Counted from the stretch's first letter, positions 21,331 through 30,634 are shown. The stretch is 64,000 nucleotides of DNA from an uncultured Acidobacteriota bacterium (GCA_963836075.1 CAWIIB010000009.1:3104001-3168000); one strand, 5' to 3'. Numbers and translations are program-made. Notes: generated by a model not told the origin, from the sequence alone.

Positions 21331-23799
21331 ATGAAATGGGCCGTGCTTTCGCTTCTGCTGCTGTGCTGCCCCGCAGTGGTCTGGGCCGATGACATCCACG
21401 TCCCCATCGACCAGCCCACCATCCAGGCCGGAATCGACGCGGCCGTGGACGGGGATAGTGTCATCGTTCTCGACGGTACGTACACCGGTGAGGGCAACAA
21501 GAACCTCGACTTTTACGGCAAGGCGATCACGGTCCGCTCCCTGACCAATCCGTGGGATTGCTGGATCGACTGCGAAGGAGAGGGCCGCGCCTTTGTATTT
21601 CAGCACAATGAAGGACCCGACTCGGTGGTTTCCGGTTTCACCATCGCCAACGGGAGGGCCCCCGACACCCCCGGCGACTATGGCGGCGGCGGGATTCGGA
21701 GTGAATACGCCTCTCCCACCATTCGCGGCAACACTTTCCAGGACTGTCAGGGGGGATTGGGTGGCGGCGACGCCATCCTTTGTTATGACGGCAATCCAGT
21801 AATTTCCCGCAATGTGATCCGTTCAAACGGCCAGGACGAAAACGATGAAGCGGTGTTGTTGCGATGGAGCGTCGCACTGGTGGAAGGGAACCGTATCGAG
21901 CAAAACTTCGGAAGCGGTATTGAACTGGACTTCGACTATTTCACTGGCAGCGATGCACCTACACTGACTGGAAACACGATTTGTGAAAACGGCGGGGACG
22001 GGATCAGGGTCGTAGGCGATTACAACGGTGTTCAGTCCAAACTGGTCTATAACGAGATCTGCCTCAACGGGGGCAGCGGAATACTGCTACGGGGCGATTC
22101 GAGACCGACCATCTCGTGGAACCGGATCCATGACAATGGAAACGGCGGCATCCTCGTGGACGGCGGTGAATCCGGAGGAACCATCAGCCACAACTACATC
22201 GCCGCAAACGAAGCCGACGAGGGCGGTGGAATTTACATCGACGGCTACTGCGAGTTCACCATCAGCAGTAACCTGATCGTTGACAACCGGGCCCAACTCC
22301 TCGGCGGCGGGATATACGCTCTGGCCTTTAACACGCTGATCAGGGGCAATACCATTGTCGGGAACAGCGCCCTCCAGGACGCAGCCGGTATCTGGTGCAT
22401 TGGCCGGGACAACACCACGATCATCGACAGCATCATCTGGGACAACACCTGCCCCACCGGCATCCAGGTTTACGGTGCCGAGGAGTGGTATGAACCGACG
22501 CTCAATATCAGCTACTGCAACATCGACGGGGGAGCGGCGGCCATAGAGGTGGAGCCGGGCTGCACGTATAACCTGGGGGCGGGCCTGATCGACGCCGATC
22601 CGCTCTTTGTCACCGGCCCGGCAGGCGATCTCCAGACCGGCAGCTATTACCTTTCGCAAGTGATCGCCGGACAGTCCGTCGACAGTCCGTGCGTGGATTC
22701 AGGCGACCCGACGGTCGATCCGGCCTGGGGCACCACCCGTACGGACCTGGTGTTCGACCAGCAACGGGCGGACATGGGTTTTCACCGCTCCGGCCCCTGC
22801 CGGCTGGTTACGGGACCGGGGCCATCAGTGAGCAATCCGCCCCTGGTCCGCATCTTTTACCCCCTGGACAGTGTCCACCTGGCCGAGTTCAGCGCCTATG
22901 GAGCGTCGGCTTACGGCGTCAACGTCAGTTGCGGTGACGTCGATGGCGACGGCGTGGACGAGATCATCACCGGCGCCGGCCCCGGGGCGATCTATGGCCC
23001 GCACGTACGCTGCTTCGGGAAGAGTGAATCCGGCAACTTCCTGCCCTTGGTGGATTTTCTTGCGTACGGAACGCTCAAATTCGGAGTGAACGTGGCCGCC
23101 GGCGACATCGACGGTGACGGCGCCGACGAATTTATCACCGGCGCCGGTCCCGGTGCGGTTTTTGGCCCCCACGTGCGAGCTTTCAATTTTGTCGATCCGG
23201 ATGATGTGATGCCGGTTCCCCGGGTGAGCTATTTCGCCTACGGCACGCCCAAGTGGGGGGTGAACGTCTCGGCGGGTGACATCGACGGCGACGGCTATGA
23301 CGAGATCGTCACTGGAGCAGGCCCCGGGGCTGTCTATGGGCCACACGTCAGGGGATGGAACGTGGACGGGGGACCGGCAACGTCCATGCCCGGCTGCAGC
23401 TTTTTTGCTTACGGCACCCTGAAATATGGTGTGAACGTCACCTGCGGCGATGTGGATGGGGACGGCATTGACGAGATCGTCACCGGCCCAGGACCCTCCT
23501 CCTTTTTCGGGGCCCACGTGCGGGCCTTTGACATGAATGGCACACCACTGCCCGGATTGAGCTTTTTTGCCTGGGATTCAGCTATTGCCCGATATGGCGC
23601 CAAGGTTTTTGCCGGTGCCGACCTGGACGGAGACGGCCGGGACGAGATCATGGTGGGCTGCGGGCCGGATCCAGACCCGGATGTGGGCACACCGGTCAAG
23701 GTCTATCGCTACACGGGATCAGGGGAGGCCGAGTGGTTCTCGCTGGAAGCTTTCCCAGGCATGACCCACGGAACCACTGTGGCAGCGGGGAGGTTCTGA
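21331..23799 (+). CDS. Secreted right-handed beta-helix protein with CTD-A module
   Basis: Signal peptide, IHVPIDQPTIQAGIDAA, GTTRTD..DMGFH linker, GAGPG..GPHVR repeats, ends AAGRF. Confidence 0.88.
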   Translation: MKWAVLSLLLLCCPAVVWADDIHVPIDQPTIQAGIDAAVDGDSVIVLDGTYTGEGNKNLDFYGKAITVRSLTNPWDCWIDCEGEGRAFVFQHNEGPDSVVSGFTIANGRAPDTPGDYGGGGIRSEYASPTIRGNTFQDCQGGLGGGDAILCYDGNPVISRNVIRSNGQDENDEAVLLRWSVALVEGNRIEQNFGSGIELDFDYFTGSDAPTLTGNTICENGGDGIRVVGDYNGVQSKLVYNEICLNGGSGILLRGDSRPTISWNRIHDNGNGGILVDGGESGGTISHNYIAANEADEGGGIYIDGYCEFTISSNLIVDNRAQLLGGGIYALAFNTLIRGNTIVGNSALQDAAGIWCIGRDNTTIIDSIIWDNTCPTGIQVYGAEEWYEPTLNISYCNIDGGAAAIEVEPGCTYNLGAGLIDADPLFVTGPAGDLQTGSYYLSQVIAGQSVDSPCVDSGDPTVDPAWGTTRTDLVFDQQRADMGFHRSGPCRLVTGPGPSVSNPPLVRIFYPLDSVHLAEFSAYGASAYGVNVSCGDVDGDGVDEIITGAGPGAIYGPHVRCFGKSESGNFLPLVDFLAYGTLKFGVNVAAGDIDGDGADEFITGAGPGAVFGPHVRAFNFVDPDDVMPVPRVSYFAYGTPKWGVNVSAGDIDGDGYDEIVTGAGPGAVYGPHVRGWNVDGGPATSMPGCSFFAYGTLKYGVNVTCGDVDGDGIDEIVTGPGPSSFFGAHVRAFDMNGTPLPGLSFFAWDSAIARYGAKVFAGADLDGDGRDEIMVGCGPDPDPDVGTPVKVYRYTGSGEAEWFSLEAFPGMTHGTTVAAGRF

Positions 23800-23812
23800 A
23801 CGGAGATATCCC

Positions 23813-24103
23813 GCTGATGAACCGCTTCCTGCCCCGGGCGTCCTCGGCCTGGTGGAAAACTGTATTGCCGCGAACAACAGCAAGCCCAGCTATGGGGGTG
23901 GGATCTCGATCCTGCCGGACAACACATCGGGCGGTACCACCGATTGTGACATCATTATTCCCGGCCTTGGGTCGGTGCTGGGGGACAACACCTTCAGCCT
24001 GGTGGCCGAGGACGTGACCCCGGCGCCATACAATCAGCCGCCCTATGCGCCGGCCGGGGATACGGATTCGGCGCAGTGCGTGGTGACGGCTGCGGCACCT
24101 TGA
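23813..24103 (+). pseudogene. Mosaic remnant: SSS-like fragment + beta-helix-like fragment + tail of CTD-B
   Basis: GCTGATGAACCGCTTCCTGCCC matches 17404-17425; then ENCIAANN..YGGGI; then IPGLGSVLGDNTFSLVAEDVTPAPYNQPPYAPAGD...CVVTAAAP*. Confidence 0.7.
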
Positions 24104-24128
24104 CGCCAGGCCCCCAGGTTCCTATATT
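24100..24128 (+). promoter_or_regulatory. Sigma70-like promoter upstream of the peptide/radical SAM operon
   Basis: TTGACG-N17-TATATT. Confidence 0.55.
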
Positions 24129-24244
24129 TAAAACAAATTGTCTGCTGAGAGCGACGTCCGATCAAATCTTAATCTTTCCGACTGCTGGGCCCGGATATTT
24201 CCGCAGGATGTCAATCGTCAAGGTATTTCCTGAACAGGAGGTAA

Positions 24245-24506
24245 ATGAAGACATATAAGAAACCATCAATTACCTCTGAAAGTTCTTCGAAACCAACGCG
24301 CTGGCCTGCGGAAAAACACCGACCCCCCGCTGGGATCACATCATTTTGCCGATGGCTATGACACATTCACCGGTCATCTCGGAGTGGGTTTCAGCACGCA
24401 GGAGTCGGTTACCGGCCAGGCCGGTATCGGATTCGGGCCCGGGAGCACCAGTATGGCCTACGGCTATTTCGGCATGTGCACCAACTGGGTCACCCTCGCG
24501 TCCTGA
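24245..24506 (+). CDS. Putative RiPP precursor peptide 1 (two 1-nt homopolymer deletions as sequenced)
   Basis: AGGAGG RBS. Restoring one A (run 24279-24281) and one C (run 24323-24328) gives 264 nt, the same length as copy 2: MKTYKKPSITSEKFFETNALACGKTPTPPLGSHHFADGYDTFTGHLGVGFSTQESVTGQAGIGFGPGSTSMAYGYFGMCTNWVTLAS. Confidence 0.8.
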
Positions 24507-24565
24507 TCACTGCATTCACTGATGGTGGACGGCAGACACAACGGGATCTTCAGGAAGGGGATACA

Positions 24566-24829
24566 ATGAAGAAATACCGGAAACCGGCCATTACGTCGGA
24601 CAAGTTCTTCGAAACCAGTGCGCTGGCCTGCGGGAAAACGGCGACCCCTCCATCAGGTTCACATCATTTTGCCGGTGGATATGACACCTTCACCGGTCAT
24701 CTCGGGGTTGGTTTCGGTACCCAGGAATCCATTACAGGACAGGGTGGCGTTGGGCTCGGGGCTGGAGGGACCAGCTCGAGTTACTGGATAGGAGGTCTGT
24801 GCACCAACTGGGTTTCCCTCGCCTCCTGA
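24566..24829 (+). CDS. Putative RiPP precursor peptide 2 (87 aa)
   Basis: Intact ORF MKKYRKPAITSDKFFETSALACGKTATPPSGSHHFAGGYDTFTGHLGVGFGTQESITGQGGVGLGAGGTSSSYWIGGLCTNWVSLAS; 24 nt upstream of the radical SAM gene. Confidence 0.85.
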   Translation: MKKYRKPAITSDKFFETSALACGKTATPPSGSHHFAGGYDTFTGHLGVGFGTQESITGQGGVGLGAGGTSSSYWIGGLCTNWVSLAS

Positions 24830-24853
24830 TCGAATACCGACAGCGTCACCGCA

Positions 24854-27116
24854 ATGAGCCGTTCAGTCCAGCGAACGATACTCGCCCAGCTGGCCCACCC
24901 GCTGGGCGACCGGAATCCCTCTTTCTGTAACCGGGAGAATATCCCACTGGCCGGCGGGTATCTGCGTGCGGCGACCAGGGCACGTGGAGGACTCTCTGCC
25001 GAAGATATCTCGATTCTCGATCCGATATTAGCCGAGCACGCCGGCGATGCGTATTTGATCAATGTCCTGGTTGAACGCCGGCCCGATGTTCTCGCCCTTT
25101 CCCTCTACCCCTGGAACCTGGTGCGCAGTGTCCGTCTGGCTCGGGAACTCCATGCCCGGCTTCCCGGATTGACGGTGGTGGCCGGCGGGCCGGAGGTCAA
25201 CGAGGTTAGCCTGCCGCTGCTGTTCGACCGTGGTGCGGTGGACTTCGCTGTTCCGGGTGAGGGCGAAGTCACCTTTCCGGATCTCCTTGCGGCGCTGGCT
25301 GACGGGCGGGACCCGGCCACTGTTGCCGGTCTGGCCCTGAGACGGAACGGGGCGATCGTCCACACACCGCCCCGCCCGACGCTGAGCGATCTGGACCAGA
25401 TCCCCTCGCCCTATCTGGAGGGTGACATCGACCCAAATGCCTGGCGTCAGGCACATGTGATTCTGGAGCGGGGGTGCGCCCACGCCTGCAAGTACTGCCA
25501 CTGGTGGCCCGATTCCCGGTCAAAGGGCGCTTTCTCCATCAAGCGTCTGGAAGAGGAGCTTGAACTGCTTCACTCATCGGCGGTGGAGGAGGTGATCTTT
25601 CTCGATGCCGCGTTGAACGCCAGCCCCCGGTTCGATGAGATATGCACCGTGCTGCAGCGGGTCAATGCCGACGGGAAGCTCAATATCAACGCGCAGATTC
25701 TCTTTGATCGCCTGGACCGCACCCAGGCGGAAAAGCTCGCTGCCGCGGGCATCCGCCGCATCGAACTGGGCCTGCAGACAGCGGACGCCGAAGTGCTGAT
25801 GAACAACAACCGGCCCCTGGAGGTGGACCGGTTCATGGAAGCCGTGCGGGCTCTGGACGGCCTGCCGATCAGTCCCCAGATCGATCTGTTCACCGGCCTC
25901 CCTGGAGATACTCCGGGATCGATCATTGCCACGGCCGGCTGGATCCGGAAGAACCTGATCCCCCATCTCTTCGCGCAGAAAAAAGCGGCCAACCTGATGA
26001 TGTTCATCCTCTCCGTGGGCTCACCCACCCAGCTTCGTCACGAGGCCGAGGCTCTGGGGCTCCGTTTCCAGCCTGAACCGCCGTACCGGGTGCTGAGCAC
26101 GGCCAACCTCGATTTCAAGGCCATCCGCTCGATGCGCATGGAGTTTTCGTGGTTGCTGGGGCTGGCCAAACACCCGCTGGATGAATTTGACCGCCCGCAC
26201 TATTCGGTCAATCTGTTCCATCCCGAGCTGGCATCCTGGTCGGCTCCCACACCAGGGAGGAATGTCGCGAAGGGTGACTCAGCGTCAGGGAGTTCGGATT
26301 GTCTGATCGATGCCGTCCGGATCGACTGCCGGGGGACGGCTTCCGGACCCGGCCACCCGTTCTCTGCCAAGGCGCTGGCCTCCCGACTGGCACAGGTGGT
26401 GCAGGTCTGGTTCCGGGTTGACGATCCTTCTTCCTGCCGGCAGCACATGTCCCAGACACTGGAAACCCTCTCCTCTCCGAACCGCCACGGCATCTGGGAC
26501 CTGGTCCTGGAAACGGACCGGGAGTTCGACCCGGATCTTGTCGACCAACTCCTCGCTGCGGTTCGAACCGAGGTGAGCGTTGTGGACTGGGACTGCTACT
26601 TCATCAATCCGGAGGAGGGGCCGGGCCACGCCAGGGTTTCGGTGCGCCCTTTCATCATTGTGCCCCTCGGCGCCGTTTCACCCCGCTGGCTCGAAATCGT
26701 GGCGCCACGCTTCCCGGTGGTGCATGCCGTCACCGTGGGCCCGGACAATCTCGAAGAGGTGCTGGACCGGGTGAGCCGCCTGCCGGGGGAGGGGATGCTG
26801 GCCGAAGTCGCCCGGGATGCCGGGTACTGCAGCGGTTCGGCCCCTGCTGGGCGGGATGCTCTCACTGGACAAGCGTGTGCTGGCTTTCCGCAACGCGGCC
26901 CTCCAGACACTGTTCGACAGGGAACGGCTGCACAAGCCGTTCATGAACAGCATGCTCAATCCGCGGATCCCGTACCGCGACCGGACCGTATTCCGGGCGG
27001 GACCGGACGGGAGTATCGGGGAGCGGAAGATCACAGTGGAACAGGTGCTCCGGGACGCAGACAGCCTGGTCAGGGCCATCGGTATTCAGCAGGGCACAAA
27101 TCGTCCCCGGATATGA
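24854..27116 (+). CDS. B12-binding radical SAM enzyme with long C-terminal extension (probable frameshift near 26812)
   Basis: Cobalamin-binding-type N-domain (LSLYPWN, VVAGGPEV, GEGEVTF); RGCAHACKYC CxxxCxxC; ELGLQT; GLPGDT. Protein-like sequence continues in ORF 26817..27116. Confidence 0.88.
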
Positions 27117-27145
27117 GGATCGGGGGTATATGAGGGAGTAAAAGC

Positions 27146-27168
27146 CTGGTGCCGAAGGGGGGATTCGA
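27146..27168 (-). repeat. att-like duplicate of the tRNA-Leu 3' end
   Basis: CTGGTGCCGAAGGGGGGATTCGA identical to 29472-29494. Confidence 0.9.
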
Positions 27169-27431
27169 GACCGAGGCGCTATCCACGAAGAAGAGCGCAA
27201 ACATTCTCTCCAGCCGTTTCGGTGGACGCCGACACCATTCGTGCTCCCAACGGCCAACCCACCATCCCGGCCGGATCGATTCGGCCGTGGCGCTGTGCAC
27301 AGTACGGAAAATATCTTGCCGTTAAGGGAGGCGGGTAGTAGACTAATATCAGTATTCATAGGCACTCATCTGCTGATCGGTCCGAGCCGATCAATCAGCC
27401 GCGCCATTATCTAAATATGAAGGAAAGTGAA

Positions 27432-28915
27432 ATGAGCACTTCCTGTTTCATCTGCTCTGTCATTCTGGTGCTCTGCTGTCTTTCCGCGGCGACCACTGAA
27501 GCACAGTTGTTCAATCCCAGCTTGGAATACGCTGCCGGCAACTATCCCTGTTCGATCGCCATCGGTGATCTGGACGGCGACAGCTTCCCGGACCTGGCCA
27601 CGGCAATCAGTGATGACGACAATGTAGCGGTGCTGTTCGGCAATGGCGACGGCACCTTTCAGCCTGCCGTATCATCTCGAGATCGGAAGCTCTCCATATG
27701 CTGTTGCCCTCGATGACCTGGATGGCGACGCCGACCTCGACCTGGTTGTGGCGAATCATGGGGATGACAATGTCACGGTGCTGCTGGGCATTGGGGACGG
27801 CACTTTCCTGGAACCCAAAAGTTACGGAATCGGGACCTCTCCCCATTCGGTCGCCATCGGTGATCTGAATGGTGACAGCTTTCCGGACCTGATCACGGTT
27901 AATTGTGATAGCGACAATGTTTCGGTGCTGCTGGGAACTGGGATCGGCACTTTTCACGCCCGCCACGGATTACGAGACTGGTGACGGGCCCACGTCGGTT
28001 GCCATTGGTGACCTGGATGGCGATGCGGTGCCCGATCTTGCCCTGGCGAACAACTACGGAGACGACCTCTCGCTGCTTGTGGGCAATGGGGACGGATCTT
28101 TCCAGGCCAAAGTCGATTTTGAGGATATTTACCAGCCGTATTCGGTAGCCATCGACGACTTGAACGGGGATGGCAACCTCGACCTGGCCGTGGCGAATCA
28201 TCATGGAGGTCACAACCTGTGGGTGTTGCTCGGAAACGGTGACGGTACATTTGAGACCTTCATGATTTACACGGCCTGCTACGCCTCTTATTCAATCGCC
28301 ATCGGTGATCTCACTGGTGACGGGCATCCGGATCTGGCTGTAGCCAGCATTGGGTTCAGCACGATTGAGGTGCTGATGGGCAACGGGGACGGCACCTTTC
28401 AACCTGCCATGCATCATGGGACCGGTGACTATCCTTATTCGGTCGCCATCGGCGACCTGGATGGGGACAGTAAACCGGATCTGGCCGTGGCGAATTACAT
28501 CGGGGACAATGTCTCCGTGTTGATCAATACTGGGGTGCCGGCATGGGAGACAGTATCGGCGGGTCTTGCCTGTCTACCGTCTACGGGCGCGCTTCCGTTC
28601 ACCACCCGGATGTACGTGTTCCTGTCCAACATCCACCCTCAAAACAGACGACGAGTGGCGGCGACGATGAACATCACCCTCGGCGGAGGTGGGCATATCG
28701 CCAACTGGCGGTCTGGATATACCAACATAGATGAAGAGGACACGTACAGCATATCCTGGATCCAGACGATCCCGGATATCGGCAAACTGGTCGGAGACAA
28801 CATCTTCACTCTGGTGGCCGCGGACGTGACACCGGCGCCATACAACCAGCCGCCCTATCCGCCCGCGGGTTTCACCGACTCCCGCTTCTGCACGGTGACG
28901 GGTATCGCGCCCTAA
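27432..28915 (+). CDS. Secreted FG-GAP/VCBS repeat protein with CTD-B (two frameshifts near 27670 and 27955)
   Basis: Signal peptide ..AEAQLF-like; (V/I)AIGDLDGD..PDL...GNGDGTF repeats across three consecutive ORFs; DVTPAPYNQPPYP..CTVTGIAP end. Confidence 0.82.
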
Positions 28916-29012
28916 TCGCTACCACAGCACCGGCTCAGGGAACTACTCGAGCCGGTGTTGCTTTGTACAGTGCATTGACCACGCCCGCCGTGGTGGAAGA
29001 GGTGGTGGACGT

Positions 29013-29280
29013 TCAAGAGCTAAACGTAACCCAATTACCGCACAGGCCAAAGTAGAAATAAGAAATCGATGTTCCACCACCCGGCCCCACACCAACCGAT
29101 CCACTGACAGATTCTGACCCACCAAAACCACTGCCCAAATGACCGGTGAATGTGTCGTAGGCTTGGGTGAAATGATATGAGCCTGGAGGCGGATCAGTTG
29201 TTTTACCGCAAGCCAAAGCTGAGGTTTCGAATGATTTCGTAGAGTGGATGCTAGGGCTTCATGTACTTGGATTTGGTCAT
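29013..29280 (-). CDS. Putative RiPP precursor peptide 3 (one extra base in a homopolymer near 29255)
   Basis: GGAGG RBS; corrected reading MTKSKYMKPSIHSTKSFETSALACGKTTDPPPGSYHFTQAYDTFTGHLGSGFGGSESVSGSVGVGPGGGTSISYFYFGLCGNWVTFSS, homologous to peptides 1 and 2. Confidence 0.8.
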
Positions 29281-29429
29281 GGTTCCTCCCCACGAACTTA
29301 GGTTGGAGACGTTGCCACCAGTTAAGTGCATTGTCCATGAAATCAAATAGTAACCTGAATATAGGGTCTATTGAGGCGAGCCGCAATCATCGGTGGGGGA
29401 GAGATGGTGGTCGTCCATGGGGTGGTCAT

Positions 29430-29458
29430 AAAAAAGCCCCTCTTTCGAGGGGATTTTT
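29430..29458 (-). terminator. Terminator downstream of tRNA-Leu
   Basis: CCCCTC-GAAA-GAGGGG hairpin plus T run on the minus strand. Confidence 0.75.
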
Positions 29459-29472
29459 CATGTACTGATTGC

Positions 29473-29559
29473 TGGTGCCGAAGGGGGGATTCGAACCCCC
29501 ACACCCTTGCGGGCACTGGACCCTGAACCCAGCGCGTCTGCCAATTCCGCCACTTCGGC
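29473..29559 (-). tRNA. tRNA-Leu(CAG)
   Basis: GCCGAAGTGGCGGAATTGGCAGACGCGCTGGGTTCAGGGTCCAGT...GGTTCGAATCCCCCCTTCGGCACCA; long variable arm, encoded CCA; TTGACA upstream at 29599-29604. Confidence 0.97.
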
Positions 29560-29650
29560 ACAAAAGGGAGCCAAGATATAACACTTTGGTTCGATTGTTG
29601 TCAACATTGGGCGGGCCGGGGTATCTGCCCGGTCCGCCCATCGTTGTATA

Positions 29651-30634
29651 ATGGGGGTGACCCGGCGCTTACTGCGCCGGATATCCCGATGGAGACCACG
29701 GTTCATGCGCTTCAGGTCACTGACCCGGATGCCCGGCTTTTTCATCCTCCTGGCGGCCTTTCTCGCGCTTGCCGGCCCCTGGCGCGCCATGGGCCAGGAG
29801 CAGCCCCGGGCGGTGGGGGAGACCTTCGAGATGGCCATCGAGGCCCGTCTGGTCCAGGTCTACGCCACGGTCACCGGGGCGCGGGACAAGGCGATCGATG
29901 ACCTGACCCGGGATGATTTCCTGGTGCTGGAGAACGGGGAACCCCAGGAGATCGTTCACTTCGCCCACGAGCAGACCCCCCTCTCCATCATCCTGCTGGT
30001 GGACAGCAGCGAGAGCATGATGGGCCGCATCGACGAGGCCCGCCGTGGGCTGGCCGATTTCATCGGCTCGGTGCGTCCCATCGACCAGGTGATGCTGGTG
30101 GAGTTCGACCACGAGGCCCGCACGCTCAGCGCCTTCACCAGCGACAAGGGCAAGCTGAAAAAGGCGCTGGAGACGCTGCGGCCGGACGGCTCCACCGCGC
30201 TCTATGACGCGCTGGCCCTCTCCATCGACCAGCTGGCCGCCCGGGCCCATGGCCGGGTGGTGGTGCTCCTTTCCGACGGGATGGACGCCAGCTTCACCGG
30301 CGGCAGCGAGAAGACCTTCGAGCAGGTGCTCCGTCAGGCCCACGAGGCGGACACCCGACTGTTCACCATCGGGCTGGGGGTCAGCGTCGACCGTGCCGAA
30401 CTGGAGCGGCTGGCCGCCGAAACCGGGGGCGAGGCTTACTTCTCCATGCAGCCCGGCGAACTGTCCGGTGTCTACCGGGAGATCGGACGCGAGCTGCACA
30501 ACCAGTATCTCCTTTCCTACCAGCCCAAAGACTTTGTGGCCGACGGCAAATGGCGGAACATCGAGGTCCGGGTCCGCCGGTCAGGATTGGCAGTGATCGC
30601 CCGAAAAGGGTATTATGCGCTGGCGGTTCCCTGA
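29651..30634 (+). CDS. VWA domain protein (acidobacterial VWFA-related type); start uncertain, possibly 29729
   Basis: LVDSSESM MIDAS, TALYDA, LLSDG.D, LAAETGG, QYLLSY.P...DGKWRNIEV. Confidence 0.88.
   Translation: MGVTRRLLRRISRWRPRFMRFRSLTRMPGFFILLAAFLALAGPWRAMGQEQPRAVGETFEMAIEARLVQVYATVTGARDKAIDDLTRDDFLVLENGEPQEIVHFAHEQTPLSIILLVDSSESMMGRIDEARRGLADFIGSVRPIDQVMLVEFDHEARTLSAFTSDKGKLKKALETLRPDGSTALYDALALSIDQLAARAHGRVVVLLSDGMDASFTGGSEKTFEQVLRQAHEADTRLFTIGLGVSVDRAELERLAAETGGEAYFSMQPGELSGVYREIGRELHNQYLLSYQPKDFVADGKWRNIEVRVRRSGLAVIARKGYYALAVP

Follow-up and report, generated by a model that had tools for sequence, protein, structure and literature searches.

Several classes of peptides that are made by the ribosome and modified after translation (RiPPs) offer points of comparison for the locus described here. 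In sactipeptides and ranthipeptides, radical S-adenosylmethionine (rSAM) enzymes with a SPASM domain link a Cys sulfur to a carbon of another residue. Among the proteusins, the polytheonamide precursor PoyA is accompanied by PoyB and PoyC, which are class-B (cobalamin-dependent) rSAM C-methyltransferases, and prochlorosins are encoded as many dispersed precursors with a conserved leader and one maturase, a lanthionine synthetase. SynChlorMet (ScmC, ScmD, ScmE and ScmF) is an uncharacterised rSAM/SPASM cassette, and a full-text literature search for that name found no paper. In lasso peptide systems, according to PMC8498205 and PMC10368454, kinases phosphorylate and a transferase glycosylates the C-terminal Ser; PMC10368454 also describes a YxxPxL-type leader motif that is bound by a PqqD-like RiPP recognition element (RRE). 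The subject of this report is a 64,000-nt stretch from an uncultured Acidobacteriota bacterium (GCA_963836075.1 CAWIIB010000009.1:3104001-3168000, hereafter the window), which carries three homologous peptide genes and a class-B rSAM gene. An earlier note on this DNA had proposed that these four genes make up a new RiPP system. All four were confirmed where it had placed them, but they are not the system: the window holds three of the 16 precursor copies of its genome, and the conserved machinery lies about 1.0 Mb away.

With moderate confidence, we read the window genes as long-core satellites of a widespread, undescribed RiPP family whose main machinery is encoded elsewhere and to which the adjacent class-B rSAM is an accessory. 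That the peptides are RiPP precursors is strongly supported by sequence comparison. They have the features of generic RRE-dependent precursors, namely a conserved leader joined to a variable core and co-localisation with PqqD and a modifying enzyme, although the latter was found at other loci and not inside the window. The 16 copies are dispersed over nine places in the genome (6.2 Mb, 10 contigs) and include one 34-aa fragment.

The peptide matched no family in Pfam or NCBIfam and no PDB sequence at E up to 1, and an ESM Atlas look-up returned only 'hypothetical protein' clusters (scores 0.85-0.88). In a collection of 5.8 billion proteins, 76 homologs of 76-137 aa were found, all of them named 'hypothetical protein'. 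Of 61 genomes of the phylum, three, all in the window's genus, had the full-length form (16, 11 and 9 copies), and four others matched residues 1 to ~30 only; in the genomes searched, a single genus has the long-core, 16-copy form. The first ~25 residues, YxKPx(I/V)xSExxFETxALxC, recur in hundreds of unnamed peptides of 38-100 aa with different cores, in metagenome-assembled genomes labelled Acidobacteriota or Terriglobia, Fermentibacteria, Eisenbacteria and PVC-group bacterium. Across seven lineages in the alignment the leader is conserved, and the cores range from 13 to 95 residues. A metagenome scan gave at least 601 pattern matches, 236 of which were confirmed and 80 kept as metagenome loci. 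A profile search gave 321 proteins, and an exhaustive one (E up to 0.001) gave 198 representatives at 50% identity; most are 40-100 aa long and aligned over the leader only.

The precursors are built on one plan. After a leader of ~21 residues, YxKPx(I/V)xSExxFETxAL(A/S/T), come an invariant Cys (Cys1) and, separated from it by 6 to ~55 variable residues, a second one; the peptide closes with a short tail whose last residue is Ser. For 291 proteins that were compared, the leader motif was present in 274, which comprise 147 long-core and 127 short-core peptides (median length from Cys1, 66 and 18 residues; CGKVQTTQSGCHQNRKTS is an example of a short core). Exactly two Cys occur from Cys1 onward in 241 of the 274, the C-terminal residue is Ser in 236 and Thr in 25, and the triplet ahead of Cys1 is ALA in 193 and ALS, ALT or ALG in 58. 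The shared motifs that had been pointed out in the three window peptides are real, the residues concerned being invariant or nearly so in a 40-member alignment (Y4, P7, A19, L20, C22, K24, G31, H34, TFTGH at 41-45, and C79). AlphaFold2 modelling of peptide 2 with 40 sequences gave no confident fold (mean predicted local distance difference test score (pLDDT), 41.6), which is weakly consistent with a substrate peptide. A lipoprotein-signal reading of 'ALAC' was ruled out: the sequence ahead of it is without a hydrophobic stretch, and RiPP cassettes of cytoplasmic type conserve this segment.

Some variations on this plan were also seen. One 131-aa protein (P0190) has four tandem repeats of a unit starting MFETEAIACGLT, which corresponds to the leader end plus the Cys1 segment. 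At two loci, L023 in the window's genome (G000:C9:1848472-1849382) and L026 in a sister genome, three tandem precursors are convergent with a gene for a very large subtilase (2078 and 1727 aa), and at L018 a clostripain-family (C11) peptidase gene directly follows another precursor copy.

A conserved set of maturation genes was found beside the peptides. Neighbours were annotated by Pfam and NCBIfam scans, and metagenome loci were scored with profiles built from the cassette proteins. Eleven genome loci (L024, L027 and L036-L044), spread over several phyla, have an rSAM/SPASM gene of 350-412 aa next to the peptide. Many of the 80 metagenome loci are short; 18 have at least 3 kb of flank on both sides, and in 15 of these the cassette lies beside the peptide. 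Within the 18 well-flanked loci and the full 80, respectively, rSAM/SPASM was detected in 14 and 40, PqqD in 15 and 39, a ScmC-like protein in 15 and 45, an S26-like peptidase in 9 and 50, and an NTP_transf_5 nucleotidyltransferase in 5 and 13; class-B rSAM was detected in 0 and 0. Such peptides adjoin PqqD and rSAM/SPASM in 15 of the 18 well-flanked metagenome loci and at the 11 genome loci, which bears out the connection that had been drawn between the YxxP-type leader and an RRE. Gene order varies: locus L043 reads ScmC/HprK-like, PqqD, rSAM/SPASM, peptide, class-B rSAM and S24/S26 peptidase, and locus L041 reads NTP_transf_5, ABC-2 transporter, peptide, peptidase, ScmC-like, PqqD and rSAM/SPASM. 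ABC-2 exporters are present in L040 and L041. The cassette SPASM enzymes (SPASM domain PF13186, 46.7 bits) form one family, with 28-46% identity across phyla and ~90% within the genus. An aminotransferase beside the Fermentibacteria and Eisenbacteria loci was rejected as a cassette member, being an ornithine aminotransferase equivalog (549 bits, cutoff 378).

In the window's own genome the cassette (L024) is located on the minus strand at G000:C9:2.12 Mb, ~1.0 Mb from the window. It consists, in this order, of a ScmC/HprK-like gene, a 91-aa PqqD (77.3 bits against a Pfam cutoff of 23.4), a 371-aa rSAM/SPASM enzyme, a 182-aa peptidase-like protein and three precursors, on the last of which two class-B rSAM genes converge. 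The 182-aa protein has a GGSMMP motif and matches archaeal-type signal peptidase I. This core machinery is encoded once in the genome, with no second PqqD and no close second peptidase of this kind. The cassette-protein profiles found no protease, exporter, PqqD or SPASM gene across the 64-kb window, which agrees with the earlier note in that no protease or exporter is adjacent. If the model set out below holds, the primary maturase of a precursor can be a megabase off, and an adjacent enzyme can therefore mislead annotation. Separately, a lone SPASM paralog (C1:90284-91324; L053:6186-7367), with 41% identity over 350 aa to the cassette enzyme, is flanked by a tRNA-like stretch on one side and a large sensor kinase on the other, and its surroundings contain no leader-family peptide, PqqD or peptidase.

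The closest parallel in recognition logic is the lasso tailoring module (the PqqD-type RRE B1, the HPr-kinase homolog K and the nucleotidyltransferase N, as in paeninodin, pseudomycoidin and BsfA). The leader matches the lasso-type YxxPx(L/I) motif in that Y and P are invariant and I, V or L stands two residues past P. Both systems have a stand-alone PqqD, for which the best NCBIfam match here is the lasso PqqD chaperone (57.6 bits, cutoff 80). They also have in common a P-loop protein related to HprK and, in part of the clusters, NTP_transf_5. The almost invariant C-terminal Ser is the residue that lasso kinases phosphorylate, according to PMC8498205 and PMC10368454. The remainder of the module differs. 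Pfam scans of 217 neighbour open reading frames (ORFs) at 28 loci found neither a lasso cyclase (asparagine-synthetase-like) nor a B2 transglutaminase-type cysteine protease; in their place are the rSAM/SPASM enzyme and the signal-peptidase-I-like protease, and the cores have two Cys and lack the Gly1...Asp/Glu ring pattern.

In gene content the closest system is SynChlorMet, which likewise has a ScmC-like protein, a PqqD relative and rSAM/SPASM, but with two SPASM enzymes rather than one. Scores stayed far under the SynChlorMet cutoffs (TIGR04248-04251) for ScmC (46.1 vs 125), ScmD (42.7 vs 100), ScmE (115.5 vs 400) and ScmF (86.7 vs 400). Sactipeptide and ranthipeptide systems (AlbA, PapB, StsB and CrpC) share the rSAM/SPASM enzyme beside a Cys-containing precursor; here, however, there are only two Cys and the RRE is a separate protein, and the cassette SPASM enzyme scored below cutoff for StsB (132 vs 625), AlbA (88 vs 850) and PapB (66 vs 340). 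The same was true of the maturases MftC (133 vs 265) and PqqE (110 vs 381), and the mycofactocin and PQQ precursors have a C-terminal Val-Tyr or Glu...Tyr where Ser is found here. As in proteusins, a long precursor is encoded alongside a class-B cobalamin rSAM, but in this family the class-B enzymes are optional additions to a SPASM-centred cassette. As the peptide had no match in NCBIfam or Pfam, the nitrile-hydratase-like leader family was not detected, those models not having been checked singly. As in prochlorosins, the paralogs (16 here) are scattered far from a single maturase set; the enzyme class differs, and the long-family cores are conserved rather than hypervariable. No cassette protein, from genomes or metagenomes, attained a curated NCBIfam equivalog cutoff, and the leader family and cassette are covered by no curated family. 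A published compendium of rSAM RiPP enzymes may include these SPASM enzymes. The full-text literature searched, with subscription journals and supplements outside its scope, contained nothing on the leader family or the cassette.

Precursor anatomy and gene linkage were read directly, and from them we infer the following maturation steps. The stand-alone PqqD-family chaperone would bind the YxxPx(I/L) leader, by analogy with lasso systems, and hand the peptide to the dedicated rSAM/SPASM enzyme, which would cross-link the core, most likely via the two Cys. By analogy with lasso kinases, the HprK/ScmC-like P-loop protein may decorate the invariant C-terminal Ser, as may the NTP_transf_5 nucleotidyltransferase in some clusters. 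The signal-peptidase-I-like protease would remove the leader after the A-x-(A/S/T/G) site ahead of Cys1. In the window's genome this scheme would involve one machinery copy with three precursors at G000:C9:2.12 Mb, plus 13 further scattered precursor copies, three of them in the window. The window class-B rSAM would be a lineage-specific accessory, most likely a cobalamin-dependent C-methyltransferase acting on a subclade of precursors described below (GSHH...TLAS). Taken to its full extent, the scheme amounts to a new RiPP class, a proposal that we make only tentatively. Such a class would combine the lasso logic of leader, PqqD, kinase and nucleotidyltransferase with an rSAM/SPASM cross-linker and a signal-peptidase-type protease, and would yield Cys-bridged products with a phosphorylated or glycosylated C-terminal Ser. 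It would also include, in one marine-sediment genus, a ~66-residue, Gly-rich core with two His, 9-16 paralogs per genome, and at least four recruited methylase-type rSAMs; one of these, the window enzyme with its almost unique C-terminal domain, would tailor one subclade.

If the maturation scheme is correct, hundreds of unnamed small ORFs in soil and sediment bacteria are precursors of one peptide family. It would also mean that modules move between RiPP classes, with lasso-type recognition and a kinase module joined to radical SAM chemistry, and that a single precursor subclade took on cobalamin radical SAM enzymes several times over, each time independently. With its leader, predicted cleavage site and enzyme set defined, the family could be directly expressed and assayed.

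A different explanation, which we consider improbable, is that the 87-aa products are small functional proteins, or cofactor or subunit precursors, matured by rSAM/SPASM for an intracellular or periplasmic role, in which the two Cys and two His could bind metal. Parallels exist in the mycofactocin and PQQ precursors and in the cross-linked small subunit of quinohemoprotein amine dehydrogenase. The long-family core is conserved over its whole length, unlike the hypervariable cores of many RiPPs, with C22, H34, H45 and C79 invariant. The SPASM enzymes score 133 bits on the mycofactocin maturase model, under its cutoff of 265, and PMC13692751 describes an rSAM/SPASM enzyme that installs thioethers on a protein-sized substrate. 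For three of ten precursor copies, a gene with a repeated C-terminal module (see below) is at most 1 kb away. The presence of 16 paralogs in a genome and of cores ranging from 13 to 95 residues, however, better fits diversifying products, and the His residues are missing from the short relatives. The lack of a confidently predicted fold and the ABC-2 exporters of L040 and L041 likewise argue against this explanation.

The enzyme beside peptide 2 belongs to class B. Its B12-binding domain scores 41.5 bits on PF02310 (cutoff 32.1), and it has a radical SAM domain (PF04055, 61.8 bits, cutoff 29.5) whose core is C208-x3-C212-x2-C215; all three Cys are invariant in the alignment. It fell under every NCBIfam cutoff, the best match being the KedN5 methylase (125 bits vs 700), and this includes the RiPP methylase models TIGR03975 rSAM_ocin_1 (63.4 vs 281.85) and ApyD (60.5 vs 750). 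Among known structures, the best matches of its model are to three methylases, CysS, TokK and TsrM (E = 4e-20 to 1e-17). A C-terminal extension of ~370 aa is rare, being common to only two other proteins in the 5.8 billion, one intact (753 aa, 70% identity) and one at 53% identity; Pfam and NCBIfam searches with residues 383-662 and with the shifted C-terminal piece gave no match. The genome has 37 class-B rSAM ORFs (profile, E up to 1e-20), an unusually large set for 6.2 Mb.

On balance, we lean towards the window enzyme being an accessory tailoring enzyme for these peptides. It is probably an accessory methylase, and not the primary maturase. The earlier claim that the peptides are substrates of the adjacent enzyme thus survives as plausible, in an accessory sense. 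The enzyme gene is on the same strand as peptide 2, and the order of precursor followed by class-B rSAM is repeated at L025 (5-bp gap), L043 and L044; convergent class-B rSAMs flank L024 and L030. Two of ten peptide loci lie within 1.5 kb of a class-B rSAM, against a random mean of 0.27 (P = 0.03, permutation). A tree built from 28 long-core peptides places copies 1 and 2 of the window in a clade with the pattern GSHH...WVTLAS (support 83/70), together with L025, the main-cluster copy nearest a convergent B12 enzyme, and L028, a PVC-group copy that adjoins a HemN-like rSAM. A methylase-type rSAM adjoins five of the five assessable members of this clade. The flanking rSAMs are four non-orthologous enzymes with 22-29% identity, and in a third genome a truncated ...VTLAS remnant lies beside a convergent enzyme.

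Several findings weigh against this reading. The best curated and structural matches of the enzyme are small-molecule methylases (KedN5; CysS and TokK), and its model is confident only for residues 1 to ~380, with pLDDT <50 in the C-terminal extension. The earlier note had suggested looking for an RRE in the enzyme and for co-occurrence of the peptides with its rSAM clade, and neither was borne out. No PqqD-like domain was detected in the enzyme (hhalign vs PqqD, probability 0.7%). Class-B rSAM was absent from 80 of 80 metagenome loci, with a profile that detected 14 of 14 control loci, and the enzyme has no ortholog beside such peptides. Its nearest relatives in the 151 genomes searched (34-35% identity in two sister genomes and 32-34% in five others of the phylum) have no leader-family peptide nearby. 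With 37 class-B rSAMs in the genome, chance adjacency is not negligible, the permutation P being only 0.03. The clade support is moderate, and related sequences share labels by descent. On the cassette side, three of the 18 well-flanked metagenome loci have none of the cassette proteins.

Much of this evidence would also suit an explanation in which the peptides are RiPP precursors and the class-B rSAM is unrelated to them, a paralog with a small-molecule or other substrate that came to lie here by chance or by recent rearrangement. The repeated tRNA-Leu end and the cluster of frameshifts in the locus (see below) are possible signs of rearrangement. We regard this as unlikely in view of the common strand, the 24-bp gap and the sole upstream promoter-like site that the peptides and the enzyme share, the recurrence of the arrangement with other class-B rSAMs at L025, L043 and L044, the five-of-five pattern in the subclade and the permutation result. 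An accessory role of the enzyme remains our preferred reading.

The features of the locus are given in Table 1.

Table 1. Features of the window locus, with positions counted from the first base of the 64,000-nt stretch
Feature	Position	Strand	Remarks
Sigma70-like promoter candidate, TTGACG-17-TATATT	24100-24128	+	117 bp upstream of peptide 1; 10/12 matches
Precursor copy 1	24245-24506	+	Long-core type, GSHH...WVTLAS subclade; broken by assembly at two places
Precursor copy 2	24566-24829	+	Intact; leader MKKYRKPAITSDKFFETSALA; core from Cys22 to C-terminal Ser87
Class-B radical SAM gene, ~754 aa	24854-27116	+	Starts 24 bp past peptide 2; near 26822 the assembly has an extra base
Repeat of 23 nt from the tRNA-Leu(CAG) 3' end	27146-27168 and 29472-29494		Direct repeat, 100% identical
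FG-GAP gene	27417-28915		Between rSAM gene and precursor copy 3; two frame changes
Precursor copy 3	29013-29280	-	GSYH...WVTFSS, with a long core; not in the subclade that holds copies 1 and 2; frame change near 29254
tRNA-Leu(CAG) gene	29473-29559	-

Precursor copy 2 is an intact ORF of 87 aa. Copy 1, which has AGGAGG 5 nt ahead of its ATG, is read in three frames as MKTYKKPSITSE, then KFFETNALACGKTPTP, then ...GSHHFADGYDTFTGH...CTNWVTLAS*, with 1-base frame changes near 24281 and 24322. Copy 3 reads MTKSKYMKP and, after one shift, SIHSTKSFETSALACGK...GNWVTFSS*. The promoter-like site that had been noted upstream of the peptides is present and is the only one of its kind in 23800-29700 (5.9 kb); shuffled sequences contain 1.9 on average, a number that the single site does not exceed, and its candidacy comes from its position. 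An Rfam search of 23500-30000 found tRNA only and no riboswitch. The 23-nt tRNA-Leu repeat brackets a 2.3-kb segment with the FG-GAP gene and precursor copy 3 and resembles a scar of integration at a tRNA; the bracketed segment has no integrase.

Six single-base frame changes fall within 5 kb (24245-29280): two in peptide 1, one in the rSAM gene, two in the FG-GAP gene and one in peptide 3. Several neighbouring genes of 800-1000 codons are, unlike this segment, uninterrupted. Such a cluster could mean that the locus is a decaying remnant, an island inserted at tRNA-Leu that has only pseudogenes left of peptides 1 and 3, of the rSAM and of the FG-GAP protein and in which nothing is functional, and the tRNA-Leu repeat around the FG-GAP gene and peptide 3 would fit this. 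Contigs from four public short-read runs of marine sediment and soil were compared with 24100-29300. In the rSAM gene, four of four runs lack the extra base at 26822, and one of them, from a near-identical strain, has contigs that otherwise match exactly across several hundred bases. The two runs that cover peptide 1 (X3 and X4, relatives at 94-96% identity) correct both of its shifts, their contigs having one extra base at each place, which restores a single frame; for the FG-GAP shifts, two or three runs give the corrected frame. At least three shifts (24322, 26822 and 29254) sit in stretches of one repeated base, where long-read errors are typical. We take the shift in the rSAM gene, and probably also those in peptide 1, for consensus errors of long reads or strain differences.

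Peptide 3 is a separate case. The base at 29254 is missing in one X4 contig, and contigs of three runs (X1, X3 and X6) cover the place without the deletion and have the shift as well; since the frame change comes directly after MTKSKYMKP, peptide 3 may be a real pseudogene. With peptide 2 intact, and with the intact 753-aa relative of the enzyme at 70% identity, we consider decay of the whole locus highly improbable, and we retain the reading of the window genes as satellites of the wider family.

A further feature of this genome is a module of ~50 aa, ...WNQxIPALGxLVGDNxFTLVAEDVTPAPYNQPPYPPAGDTDTxxCTVTGIAP, in which 98 of its ORFs end. Pfam has no family for it, and the stop codon is nearly always 18 residues past the PYNQPPY motif; judged from its sequence, it looks like an undescribed sorting or anchoring domain. 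In the window it is found at 23976-24057 and 28788-28869, in both of the FG-GAP/beta-helix genes that flank the peptide locus. Three of ten peptide loci lie within 1 kb of the module, against a random mean of 0.36 (P about 0.005), and two of these three are in the window. Metagenome contig depth over the module was 173-276, compared with ~5-10 over most of the stretch.

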